From Escherichia phage vB_EcoM_ACG-C40: DNA of 64,000 nucleotides. Positions 35,128 to 37,714 of this stretch are shown here, piece by piece. The stretch is taken from the sequence record NC_019399.1, one strand, 5' to 3'. The first letter of the stretch is position 1, and the number at the start of each line of letters is the position of its first letter. The notes under the pieces were generated by a model. It was given only the letters and a program-made list of their open reading frames with translations, did no database searches and was not told the DNA's origin. The position numbers were made by a program, and so were the translations under genes.

Positions 35128-35170
35128 TTCATTCTCCAAGTTGTTTTCTGTATCAGTAGTTGATAGTTGT

Positions 35171-35200
35171 ATAGTACCATGGAAGGACAAGGATGTAAAC
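35171..35200 (-). promoter_or_regulatory. early promoter (GTTTAC, 18 bp, TACTAT)
   Basis: gtaaac 35195..35200; atagta 35171..35176. Confidence 0.6.
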
Positions 35201-35340
35201 CGTTTTGTGAAAAAATTTTTAAAAAGTTTTGGGGAATTCTAGGGCAGGGAGGGGAAATCAAAGGATAGGATAATATATTATAAAGGGTAGAAACTAAATG
35301 ATGTCTAGAGAGGCCTGGAAAGGCCTAGATACCAAAAAGC

Positions 35341-35360
35341 CCCAACCTTTCGGTTGGGGC
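35341..35360 (-). terminator. intrinsic terminator closing the tRNA/small-RNA transcription unit
   Basis: minus strand CCCCAACC-GAAA-GGTTGGGG followed by CUUUUUGG. Confidence 0.6.
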
Positions 35361-35362
35361 TA

Positions 35363-35662
35363 AGCCTTGCGGCAACCTTGTCGGGGTTCCACCTGCTAAG
35401 GCAAGTGTTTGTACGAAACGCCGGGATTCGAACCCGGTTATTAAGCAGTTGACGCTACTCAATATTTTTTAAAAGGCCATATCTCGACCATATCCGAACG
35501 TTCCGTCAAAAACGCTACTCGGCTTACGGCAAAGATATTTCCTCGAATCGATAATTCGGTGCGCCGTTTCTGCTGTGATGTAAGGGGACATTAACAAAAC
35601 ATAAAGATTTATTAATGCCAGTCCTTAAACAGGGAACATCAGTCCGACGACTTACCGGTAGC
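35363..35662 (-). ncRNA. candidate stable small RNA(s), possibly T4 species 1/2 (rnaC/rnaD) equivalents
   Basis: about 300 nt non-coding; tRNA-like T-arm CCGGGTTCGAATCCCGG on the minus strand; GAGTAGCGT repeated twice. Confidence 0.35.
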
Positions 35663-35673
35663 GACCCGGTTTC

Positions 35674-36024
35674 TTAATATTCTTTTAAAGCATCAATCTG
35701 TTCACGGCGTTTACGCCATAAATCAATTGCTTCATACGCAGATTCAGCATTTCGAATTAGCCGGCATTTATGTAAAGACTTATGATTTTGATATTGTGTA
35801 GATAATGGAATTGTATCTAAAAGGTCTTTACGATCAAAGTATTCGTAACCATCTAAACCAAATGAACGATTTTTGAGAAATTGCCAATGGCCAAATTCAT
35901 TTTCAACATAAACATAATCTGCATGCTGATAAAGTAAATTAATTACACGTTCAGAAATAGCAGTATCATTATGATTAAAATAGAATGTTAAATCATGAAC
36001 TACTAAATAAACATTACCTTTCAT
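35674..36024 (-). CDS. hypothetical protein co-transcribed with the tRNAs
   Basis: 116 aa; ATG 18 nt downstream of the tRNA-Arg 3' end with GAGGAAAA SD. Confidence 0.5.
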   Translation of the reverse strand: MKGNVYLVVHDLTFYFNHNDTAISERVINLLYQHADYVYVENEFGHWQFLKNRSFGLDGYEYFDRKDLLDTIPLSTQYQNHKSLHKCRLIRNAESAYEAIDLWRKRREQIDALKEY

Positions 36025-36042
36025 ATTTTCCTCACTTATAAT

Positions 36043-36118
36043 TGGTCGAGGCAGTAGGGATCGAACCTACGACCCAGGACTTAGAAGGTCCTTGCTCTTC
36101 CTTCTGAGCTATGCCCCG
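36043..36118 (-). tRNA. tRNA-Arg (anticodon UCU)
   Basis: hand-folded cloverleaf; 7-bp acceptor, GCTC/GAGC D-stem, loop CTTCTAA, T-loop TTCGATC, CCA encoded. Confidence 0.8.
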
Positions 36119-36122
36119 TAAT

Positions 36123-36198
36123 TGGGGTGACCGATGGGAGTCGAACCCATGACTACGAGAATCACAATCTCGAGTTCTACCAACTGAACTACGGCCAC
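36123..36198 (-). tRNA. tRNA-His (anticodon GUG)
   Basis: cloverleaf with loop TTGTGAT, discriminator C, CCA encoded; no encoded G-1. Confidence 0.65.
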
Positions 36199-36312
36199 AT
36201 TAATACCTACTCCAACAATCATGATGTCTTCACACGAAATTAAGAGAAGAGTGATCAGTTCAACCCCTATAATCGCGTCAAGTAGATATTAATGTGACAG
36301 TTGTCACAAATT

Positions 36313-36387
36313 TGGCGGACGTGATAGGATTCGAACCTATAACCAATCGCTTAACAGGCGATCGCTCTGCCATTGAGCTACACATCC
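36313..36387 (-). tRNA. tRNA-Asn (anticodon GUU)
   Basis: perfect anticodon stem ATCGC/GCGAT, loop CTGTTAA, T-loop TTCGAAT, CCA encoded. Confidence 0.7.
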
Positions 36388-36391
36388 AAAT

Positions 36392-36478
36392 TGGTGGGGA
36401 GTGATGGAGTCGAACCACCCGAGTCGCAATGACAATGAATTTACAGTCCACACCGCTACCTCTACGGGATAACTCCCC
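36392..36478 (-). tRNA. tRNA-Tyr (anticodon GUA), class II
   Basis: 87 nt; acceptor GGGGAGT/ACTCCCC; loop CTGTAAA; long variable arm; T-loop TTCGACT. Confidence 0.65.
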
Positions 36479-36490
36479 TAATTCATAATT

Positions 36491-36565
36491 TGGTGGCCCT
36501 GGGTGGAATTGAACCACCATCTGGCGATTATGAGTCGCTTGCTTGAACCTTCCAGCTACAGGGCC
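36491..36565 (-). tRNA. tRNA with CAU anticodon (Ile2 by T4 position, or Met)
   Basis: acceptor GGCCCTG/CAGGGCC; loop CTCATAA; CCA encoded. Confidence 0.7.
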
Positions 36566-36566
36566 T

Positions 36567-36642
36567 TGGTGCTGATTGACGGAATCGAACCGCCGACCTT
36601 CTCATTACAAGTGAGTTGCTCTACCTACTGAGCTAAATCAGC
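36567..36642 (-). tRNA. tRNA-Thr (anticodon UGU)
   Basis: 76 nt cloverleaf; loop CTTGTAA; T-loop TTCGATT. Confidence 0.8.
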
Positions 36643-36647
36643 AAAAC

Positions 36648-36737
36648 TGGCGGAGGCGATAGGATTTGAACCTATGAGTCGCCGGAGCGACTGCCGGTTT
36701 TCAAGACCGGTGCATTAAACCACTCTGCCACACCTCC
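36648..36737 (-). tRNA. tRNA-Ser (anticodon UGA), class II
   Basis: 90 nt; loop CTTGAAA; long variable arm; 2 nt from the tRNA-Pro 3' end. Confidence 0.8.
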
Positions 36738-36739
36738 AG

Positions 36740-36813
36740 TCTCCATACAAGGATTTGAACCTTGGACCTCCTGATCCCAAATCAGGCGCTCTACCAAACT
36801 GAGCTACACGGAG
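36740..36813 (-). tRNA. tRNA-Pro (anticodon UGG); CCA not encoded
   Basis: loop TTTGGGA; T-loop TTCAAAT; 3' end followed by CT then tRNA-Ser, a dimeric precursor arrangement. Confidence 0.8.
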
Positions 36814-36823
36814 TAAATTGAAT

Positions 36824-36897
<74 letters not shown>

Positions 36898-36902
36898 AAA
36901 TT

Positions 36903-36989
36903 TGGTGCGAGAAGTGGGACTCGAACCCACAAGGAAATCATTCCGCAGCATTTTAAGTGCTGTGCCTTTACCAATTTGACCATTCTCGC
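36903..36989 (-). tRNA. tRNA-Leu (anticodon UAA), class II
   Basis: 87 nt; GCGAGAATGGTCAAATTGG...; loop CTTAAAA; long variable arm. Confidence 0.85.
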
Positions 36990-36995
36990 GTTATA

Positions 36996-37604
36996 TTATT
37001 TATTACGTGAAAAAGACTGTTCTATCAATTCTGGACACTTTCGTTCTATCCATTTTCTAGCTTTTTGTGGGCTTATACCTATTATTTTAGCAGCTTTACT
37101 AACCCATCCAAATTTAGAATAATCGATTTTAACTAATTCTTCGTAAATTTCATCAGTTAAAATCTTTTCATTAATATTTACCAGTAAATGATATAATTTG
37201 TTATCATTAGCAATTTTAATGAATCTTTTATAGTTTCCGCCTTTACTTAAACCTAATGAAGTAATTGCAGATGATATAGTAGCCGAATTTAATAATGCGT
37301 TTAAAATTTCTTCATCACTAACATTATAACGCTTTTTATTATTTTTAATATTTTTACCAGCAAAAGTATCAGTTTGCGAATGACAGTTTGGACATAATAA
37401 TCTTAAATTTGATTTAAGATGATTTTTGTTATTTCCATCAATATGGTCTAATTGTAGAACAATATGCTTATTTTGCCATTTTGAAATTTTACAAATTGCA
37501 CACTCATATGGAAAAATATTTTCTTTTATTATTTTGTCTTTTAGCTTTCCTGTACTAAAATTTGGATGTTTTCCTTCAAAAATTTCAGCTAATTTAGTAT
37601 CCAT
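36996..37604 (-). mobile_element. freestanding HNH homing endonuclease (Mob-like) next to the tRNA cluster; start uncertain
   Basis: HNH motif LQLDHIDGNNKNHLKSNLRLLCPNCH; C-terminal helix-turn-helix-like GISPQKARKWI; track start is TTG. Confidence 0.65.
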
Positions 37605-37714
37605 AATATGATTCCCAATTATTAACAAAGGCTCTCAAGCAAGAACCCTTGATGATAGAGGGTATTAATCAGTGCGGTATGAGTTAATAATAACAAATAA
37701 TTCTTAAAGCATAT

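Follow-up and report, generated by a model that had tools for sequence, protein, structure and literature searches.

The window analyzed here is a 64,000-nucleotide (nt) stretch of the genome of Escherichia phage vB_EcoM_ACG-C40 (NC_019399.1), within which all positions below are counted. At the 3' end of a transfer RNA (tRNA) operon encoded on its minus strand lies a non-coding interval that in all likelihood carries this phage's orthologs of T4 rnaD and rnaC, i.e., two stable non-coding RNAs that would be cut from the 3' end of the long operon transcript. The phage itself is a T4-like coliphage of the genus Tequatrovirus, of the RB51/RB68/Sf24 type: a megablast search of 50,697 phage records with positions 35300-35700 matched 762 of them, nearly all from Tequatrovirus (the T4-like coliphages), with RB51, RB68, Sf24, and Kha5h at the top (~98% identity). 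The homologous stretch is labeled as the non-coding RNAs rnaC and rnaD in the RB68 record and as rnaC in the Kha5h record, and the T4 reference (NC_000866) has misc_RNA features (T4s001 and T4s002) for rnaC ('species 1 RNA') and rnaD ('species 2 RNA') directly downstream of tRNA-Arg. The initial annotation of the window had guessed at a counterpart of these two RNAs and had suggested an alignment to the T4 region. That alignment bears the guess out: the interval aligns end-to-end with the annotated T4 genes (97.9% identity for rnaC and 86.8% for rnaD) and has in common with them the order (rnaD, then rnaC), the strand, the trailer, and the downstream terminator, a relationship of orthology rather than analogy. 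Both are known genes and are ordinary for a T4-type phage genome. In T4, transcription of the tRNA operon crosses the whole cluster and ends after the species I gene, and a primary transcript of ~1.75 kb is the precursor of eight tRNAs as well as the species I and II RNAs (PMC2330249).

The coordinates of both genes in the window were transferred by alignment with T4 and RB68. Along the minus strand, rnaD (35558-35677; ~120 nt; 98.3% identical to its RB68 counterpart) is followed by a 6-nt spacer, GAAUUA (35552-35557; placed by alignment to the T4 annotation), and then by the tRNA-like rnaC (35412-35551; 140 nt), where homology extends over the full length, with 137 of the 140 aligned positions identical to T4. 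The latter gene is scored at 146.5 bits by our covariance model R1 (at 35410-35552) and folds with a minimum free energy of -50.2 kcal/mol (z = -4.0). Downstream of it come a ~50-nt 3' trailer with short hairpins predicted by folding (35362-35411), which falls outside the mature RNAs as annotated in T4, and the intrinsic terminator of the operon (35333-35361), with a 10-base-pair (bp) stem, a GAAA loop, and a U run; trailer and terminator (35338-35411) are 94.6% identical to T4. A terminator scan recovers the terminator at 35338-35361, in agreement with the initial annotation, which had it at 35341-35360. The limits of 35363-35662 given there to the non-coding segment do contain RNA, but the RNA-coding part spans 35412-35677, with rnaD running 15 nt past the right edge. 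Similarly, its placement of the two RNAs just downstream of tRNA-Arg holds for the gene order, but whereas rnaD of T4 starts 1 nt after tRNA-Arg, an open reading frame (ORF) of 116 amino acids (aa) stands between them here, as in T2, RB68, and Sf24.

The interval was also said to hold no credible ORF, and this view stands: its candidates are merely ORFs of 42 and 45 aa, both with a TTG start and both with frames broken by 1-base indels relative to the closest, near-identical phages (ATGTCCCC vs ATG-CCCC; A6 vs A5). These ORFs, together with 'hypothetical protein' coding sequences (CDSs) lying over rnaC or rnaD in many GenBank records of other phages (e.g., L006 2420-2605, L027 2516-2653, L032 504-632, and L033 416-553, where the L numbers are our handles), are what could be held to favor a small protein encoded here. 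However, the annotated CDSs disagree on strand and frame from phage to phage, and substitutions follow the paired columns of the RNA structure described below; we give such a protein next to no credence and regard the CDSs as probable annotation artifacts.

The Rfam covariance search that had been suggested for the segment came out negative. In 35150-36050 no curated family reaches its gathering threshold (E-values 0.6-7, with bit scores well below the thresholds), and the weak matches at E <= 10 (snoR53, adapt33, RT-6, isrK, anti-hemB, and tRNA-Sec) were rejected as chance-level, leaving no family by either cut-off. The gathering-level matches in the window are solely to nine of the ten neighboring tRNAs, and neither rnaC nor rnaD has an Rfam family. 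Our covariance model detects no second copy of rnaC in the window, and likewise none in phages lacking rnaC.

The tRNA-like fold of rnaC

An alignment of 17 distinct rnaC sequences from at least eight genera underlies a comparative structural model that is new, with no description of it found in the searchable literature. RNAalifold predicts 40 pairs from this alignment, 22 of them with compensatory change. In an explicit count, 97.9% of the cells are paired, a share that falls to 38-47% if the 3' strands are displaced by 1-3 columns, and both members have changed in 23 of the 45 pairs. Out of 500 shuffles of the alignment, 13 reached the observed value for further pair types, and none did so for any of the other four measures. 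This comparison across genera lends good support to a predicted tRNA-like four-way junction.

In the model, the ends of the RNA pair in a 7-bp acceptor-like stem (CGAUUCG, 35544-35550, with CGUUUCG, 35414-35420), followed by U35413 at the discriminator position and then by ACA. The third pair of this stem is changed from A-U to G-C in 13 of the 17 sequences, and two U·U oppositions at mid-stem are invariant. The T arm (35421-35437), CCGGG-UUCGAAU-CCCGG with a canonical T loop, coincides with the T-arm-like element that the initial annotation had picked out on the minus strand; the pair at the middle of its stem varies between genera (G-C, U-A, A-U, or U-G). Both of these helices (numbers 1 and 8) are 100% paired, with one compensatory pair each. 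The D-arm position is taken by a 70-nt arm, H1 (35474-35543), whose helices (2-5) show compensatory change in 14 of 20 pairs and whose length stays at 70-71 nt in all 17 sequences although two unrelated sequence versions exist. A single-stranded A/U-rich linker, UUUAAAAAA (35465-35473; 7-10 nt and always AAAA-ended), leads from H1 to a second arm at the anticodon-arm position, H2 (35439-35464), which begins with an invariant U (U35464) and is comprised of a 10-bp stem and a 6-nt loop. It shows compensatory change in six of the nine counted pairs and is 26 nt long in 17/17 sequences; a single A separates it from the T arm. The triplet after the discriminator U is ACA in 15 of the 17 sequences, the window included, and CCA in two from Marfavirus, an apparent layout of discriminator base plus near-CCA tail.

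The rnaC of Serratia phage LC53 (Winklervirus; L028 2425-2567) keeps all helices and both apical loops and has UGCAUCC instead of UUCGAAU as its T loop, which shows that a lineage can dispense with the canonical one. ARAGORN calls an aberrant 'tRNA-???' at 35411-35506; the pairing behind this call, between an internal ACGGAACG and the 3' end, was rejected, as three of its eight pairs are broken in 6-13 of the 17 homologs and it shows no compensatory change.

Set beside canonical tRNAs (RF00005), rnaC is alike in that the 7-bp stem between its ends is stacked on a T arm made up of 5 bp and the loop UUCGAAU, in its presence in tRNA arrays with tRNA-like spacing, and in the U-CCA that the Marfavirus copies encode after the stem. 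It is unlike them in having H1 and H2 instead of a D arm and an anticodon arm (5-bp stem, 7-nt loop), and in the two U·U oppositions of its acceptor stem. The interval has no match to RF00005 even at E <= 10 (gathering score 29 bits), and its best match in the tRNA clan, to tRNA-Sec, has 16.8 bits (E = 2.6) versus a gathering score of 47. An acceptor/T-arm module fused to a large non-tRNA domain is also seen in the tRNA-like (tRNA-Ala-like) domain of transfer-messenger RNA (tmRNA) and in the tRNA-like Y RNAs of bacteria (YrlA), which are processed by tRNA enzymes, and rnaC resembles both in joining such a module to a large non-tRNA part. Unlike tmRNA, it has A-U or G-C rather than G3·U70 as the third acceptor pair and has no tag reading frame; moreover, its ends lie in the acceptor-like stem, whereas those of YrlA lie in the Ro-binding stem. 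ARAGORN reports no tmRNA, and the interval has no Rfam match to tmRNA or YrlA. Hence, the tRNA-like elements that the initial annotation ascribed to the segment as a whole are borne out for rnaC, but rnaD is not tRNA-like.

The presence of tRNA parts, and the half-recognition of rnaC by ARAGORN, might instead mark it as a decaying pseudo-tRNA, with rnaD as spacer or leader debris of the operon, both being transcribed and processed merely through their location and having no function of their own. T4-type tRNA clusters are highly mosaic and rearranged by homing endonucleases (PMC2330249), and SegB and HNH genes are seen; further, LC53 has a degenerate T loop, and Dhakavirus is without rnaC. Decay, however, sits poorly with the 23 pairs that have changed in a compensatory manner, with 6-nt loops that are both invariant, and with arms whose lengths differ by no more than 1 nt over at least eight genera, and equally so with the 45-nt 5' core of rnaD, which stays at 96-100% identity amid diverging flanks. 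Covariation, invariant loops, and constancy of length together form the strongest argument against both a relic and a coding sequence, and we deem a relic highly unlikely.

The apical loops of H1 (UUGACG; 35504-35509) and H2 (CGUCAA; 35449-35454), each of 6 nt, are reverse complements of one another, and all six pairs between them are kept in 17/17 rnaC sequences. A single paired change, from A-U to G-C, has occurred in Marfavirus phages F48 and EI (giving UUGGCG and CGCCAA) and is seen again in three independent metagenomic contigs. Both loops are otherwise invariant while the stems turn over, to the extent that in one contig (L053) the entire H2 stem is replaced and the loop is the same. Loop-loop energies are -5.5 and -7.6 kcal/mol for the matched pairs and -4.9 and -0.4 kcal/mol for the half-changed combinations, which would pair less strongly or fail to pair. 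Pattern scans of IMG/VR and of the JGI metagenomes gave only Tequatro-, Karam-, Kanagawa-, and Marfa-type copies, with no second covariation event for the loops. Taken together, the sequence comparisons suggest that the two loops may form a kissing interaction. There is moderate support for a model in which H1 and H2 would be joined by this kissing into a closed, rigid ring, whose size would be set by the constant lengths of the arms; summed, 5 bp of upper H1 stem, 6 bp of kiss, and 10 bp of H2 come to about the length of the lower H1. HIV TAR-TAR* and ColE1 RNA I/II are examples of kissing complexes in which the hairpin loops, of 6-7 nt, are fully complementary. The rnaC loops are comparable in being two 6-nt hairpin loops complementary over their whole length and differ in that both lie in one molecule, where their pairing would close a ring.

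The initial annotation had also drawn attention to a motif, GAGTAGCGT, repeated twice on the minus strand. It does occur in exactly two copies in the 64 kb (35452-35460 and 35512-35520), where 0.13 are expected by chance and two matches are reached by 2 of 100 shuffles. The first copy is absent from rnaC of the Gelderland-, Marfa-, and Kanagawa-type, and the repeat is not a conserved element.

Structure of rnaD and spread of the two RNAs

For rnaD, 13 distinct sequences were aligned. They hardly vary over the first 45 nt and the last 21 nt, where the copy in the window is essentially identical to T4. The structure predicted from them is a 5' hairpin followed by a long irregular rod, with a near-invariant core and an exchangeable tip; 97.2% of its cells are paired, versus 29-49% when slid. 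The 5' hairpin, P0 (35654-35670), has a 5-bp stem, ACCGG/CCGGU, and an invariant 7-nt loop, GUCGCUA. Its closing pair is A-U, G-U, or G-C among the 13 sequences, with the remaining pairs invariant, and the terminator scan scores its site on the opposite strand as terminator-like. The P1 stem pairs GUCGUCG (nt 27-33 of rnaD; 35645-35651) with CGGCGCAC (35559-35566, with one bulged C), which is followed by the 3'-terminal C. Its 7 bp are 100% paired in the 13 sequences, with one change, from U-A to U-G, in T6. The base following the ...CACC of rnaD is A in T4 (...CACCA) and G here. Two short inner helices show some covariation. The apical hairpin (35584-35624), in which most of the differences from T4 are found, exists in three unrelated sequence versions (one in the window, T4, P8, and VR5, another in T2 and M719, and a third in VR25 and IME08), which do not follow genus boundaries.

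A divergent rnaD in Escherichia phage UPEC01 (Gaprivervirus; L035 ~1501-1620) has a continuous GCCUG/CAGGC helix in place of the conserved internal loop (GACUGAUG ... CAGAAA), which makes it a naturally occurring variant on which the rnaD junction could be tested. Several resemblances of rnaD to known motifs were considered and set aside. A hammerhead-like arrangement (CUGAUG...GAAAC) has a misfitting helix order, a U for A9, and no Rfam ribozyme match, and a K-turn in the internal loop would be non-canonical, as the G-A dinucleotide is not adjacent to a stem. Mimicry of an anticodon stem-loop by P0 (5-bp stem, 7-nt loop, and U at loop position 2) is a weak resemblance in which position 37 would be U. 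Pairing of the loop stretch CGCUAC with two copies of GUAGCG in rnaC spans 6 nt only and involves sites inside rnaC stems.

Sensitive BLAST searches, together with pattern scans of IMG/VR and metagenomes, recovered rnaC from Tequatro-, Gapriver-, Karam-, Gelderland-, Winkler-, Kanagawa-, Moon-, and Marfavirus, and rnaD from Tequatro-, Gapriver-, and Dhakavirus and a few unclassified relatives. These occurrences show the two to be separable modules. In Dhakavirus IME08, rnaD runs directly into the trailer without rnaC. The rnaC of COW86c, RZH, VPA32, and Melville fills a 149-155-nt gap between tRNA-Trp and tRNA-Gly, that of LC53 fills the gap between tRNA-Phe and tRNA-Trp, and that of Kanagawavirus lies downstream of a protein gene. 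No rnaC-like 3' module was found in 185,579 bacterial and archaeal species genomes.

This distribution bears on whether the RNAs act in cis, either as 3' caps shielding the tRNA precursor from exonucleases or as guides to cleavage by RNase III, E, or P. The dimeric species 2-species 1 precursor of T4 has been followed in mutants of RNase III and of RNase P, and its processing needs RNase III; this would suit such a role, as would the position of the two RNAs in Tequatrovirus, where they are the last elements of the operon ahead of its terminator, and the comparable structured leader before tRNA-His (see below). Yet rnaC is found at internal slots of tRNA arrays (Karam-, Gelderland-, and Winklervirus) and behind a protein gene (Kanagawavirus), either RNA persists in the absence of the other, and a protective cap would need neither invariant loops nor exact arm lengths. 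An action in cis of this kind thus seems distinctly improbable.

We also regard it as unlikely that the two are trans-acting, base-pairing small RNAs (sRNAs) of the Hfq/ProQ type, which would control host or phage mRNAs via short seeds. Their mature ends lack an Hfq-type terminator hairpin with U tail (the terminator lies 50 nt past the annotated end of rnaC, and rnaD has none), and the best-conserved unpaired hexamers of rnaC, rather than being free, are mutually complementary. The search of 5,426 E. coli genomes for a homolog or long antisense target, which short seeds fall outside of, returned nothing except a 27-nt chance-level match (E = 3), and in a 2010 review no trans-acting T4 sRNA had been characterized (PMC3014915). 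What fits such a role is that they are abundant late RNAs (PMC9697503), that the single-stranded A/U-rich linker of rnaC and the 7-nt loop of rnaD are invariant, that the 5' tail of rnaD is rich in purines, and that the exchangeable tip of the latter RNA could be a specificity element.

Possible roles of rnaC and rnaD

The searchable literature assigns no function to rnaC or rnaD, two apparent mentions having been false leads. The roles of T4 RNAC and RNAD have been given as unknown (PMC3014915), and in 2022 they were described as 'of yet unknown functions' and classed as late RNAs, with RNAC seen by Northern blot (PMC9697503). In a 2025 evolution experiment, a single convergent single-nucleotide polymorphism (SNP), inside rnaD, was found in 3/3 lines of a T4-like phage adapted to semi-permissive E. 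coli (PMC12685909), an rnaD SNP having arisen on ECOR34; by coordinate arithmetic from the figures of that paper, it falls in or near the variable tip of rnaD.

Given its position between tRNA genes in other genera, with tRNA-like spacers, rnaC is very probably matured like a tRNA. By the established rules for substrates of the host tRNA-maturation enzymes, the acceptor/T minihelix would make it a target of these, namely of RNase P at the 5' end and exonucleolytic trimming at the 3' end, with probable modification of the T loop. Maturation of this kind would let rnaC fit any slot of a tRNA array and accumulate as a discrete stable RNA. We tentatively propose that it might mimic a tRNA and so occupy or titrate a host factor recognizing tRNAs, with a tRNA-directed defense nuclease and a processing or modification enzyme as candidates; tRNAs are increasingly recognized as targets of immunity (PMC12851939). 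With regard to rnaD, the convergent SNP and the swapping of the apical hairpin across genera hint at a host-related role, and it could act in a host-specific interaction via its exchangeable tip. In its most elaborate form, which we hold to be doubtful, the proposal would have rnaC as a portable, ring-closed tRNA mimic, in which the minihelix recruits the tRNA machinery and the kissing arms form a non-decoding body, serving as a decoy or inhibitor of an elbow- or acceptor-end-reading factor. The other RNA, rnaD, would be a second, host-specific effector with its tip setting the specificity.

Several points weigh against these interpretations. Deletions of the T4 tRNA region are viable on laboratory strains, so that any function of rnaC and rnaD would have to be conditional. 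The boundaries of both RNAs are borrowed from the T4 annotation and could be in error by 1-3 nt; the geometry of rnaC places the RNase P cut one base inside its annotated 5' U, and the 3' ACA/CCA triplet lies just beyond its annotated end. As rnaC has no 7-nt anticodon-like loop, it would be a poor decoy for anticodon nucleases, and a factor reading the elbow or the acceptor end fits better. The kissing helix has one evolutionary event behind it, and an intermolecular pairing of the loops, in a dimer, fits equally well. In rnaD, whose core is too conserved for much covariation, both members have changed in no more than 5 of 22 pairs, and the central junction is ambiguous; the BW1 SNP, for its part, is a correlation from one study (PMC12685909).

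Hundreds of T4-like genomes leave rnaC and rnaD unannotated or under seemingly spurious 'hypothetical protein' CDSs, and the alignment and model of rnaC could fill the corresponding gap in Rfam. The function of the T4 species 1 and 2 RNAs has been an open question since the 1970s, species 1 having been sequenced in the middle of that decade, and the comparative fold offers testable handles on it. For rnaC, these are the invariant complementary loops, the fixed arm lengths, the tandem U·U pairs, and the placement in tRNA slots; for rnaD, they are the invariant core and the exchangeable tip, as a guide for mutants and pull-downs.

Surroundings of the tRNA operon

The 116-aa ORF (35674-36024, minus strand; phrog_3355, of unknown function) lies between tRNA-Arg and rnaD, with its TAA stop codon (35674-35676) overlapping the first nucleotides of the latter. 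It is present in T2, RB68, and Sf24 and absent in T4, T6, IME08, and VR25; in Yersinia phage P8 and M719 its position is taken by an ORF of 80 codons (240 bp with the stop codon counted). Ahead of it on the same strand is an array of ten tRNAs (36043-36989; Leu, Gly, Pro, Ser, Thr, Met, Tyr, Asn, His, and Arg). The 114-nt spacer between tRNA-Asn and tRNA-His (36199-36312, minus strand) folds stably (-32.7 kcal/mol; z = -3.7) and is kept directly 5' of tRNA-His in the Karam-, Winkler-, Gelderland-, and Moonvirus arrays. It forms a stem of ~18 bp whose 3' strand runs into the first nucleotides of tRNA-His, and in which seven pairs show compensatory change. The phage records examined have no annotation for this spacer, which may be a structured processing leader (an RNase III-like substrate) or a third stable RNA. 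Together, tRNA-His and the leader (36123-36312) are an insertion relative to RB68 (L001), Kha5h (L002), and Sf24 (L003), in which 4 nt lie between tRNA-Asn and tRNA-Arg; ~195 other phage records have the order Asn-leader-His-Arg.

Immediately upstream of tRNA-Leu is an HNH homing-endonuclease gene (36999-37628, minus strand; phrog_14736, E = 6e-124), in place of which T4, RB68, Kha5h, and Sf24 have tRNA-Gln, a tRNA not found in the window; here, the tRNA cluster seems to have undergone a further rearrangement driven by an endonuclease. At the other end of the operon (~35300-35340), RB68 (L001 2570-3043; RB68_138) has an extra ~550 bp with a 157-aa ORF between e.8 and the rnaC terminator. This insert is shared by RB51 and many relatives and is absent in Sf24 and in the window, for which reason most of the megablast matches are split in two pieces. 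The tRNA arrays of Karam-, Gelderland-, and Winklervirus have further unannotated gaps of 100-250 nt (L005 1510-1753 and 1830-1987; L009 1966-2178; L028 512-752), which might hold additional structured RNAs.

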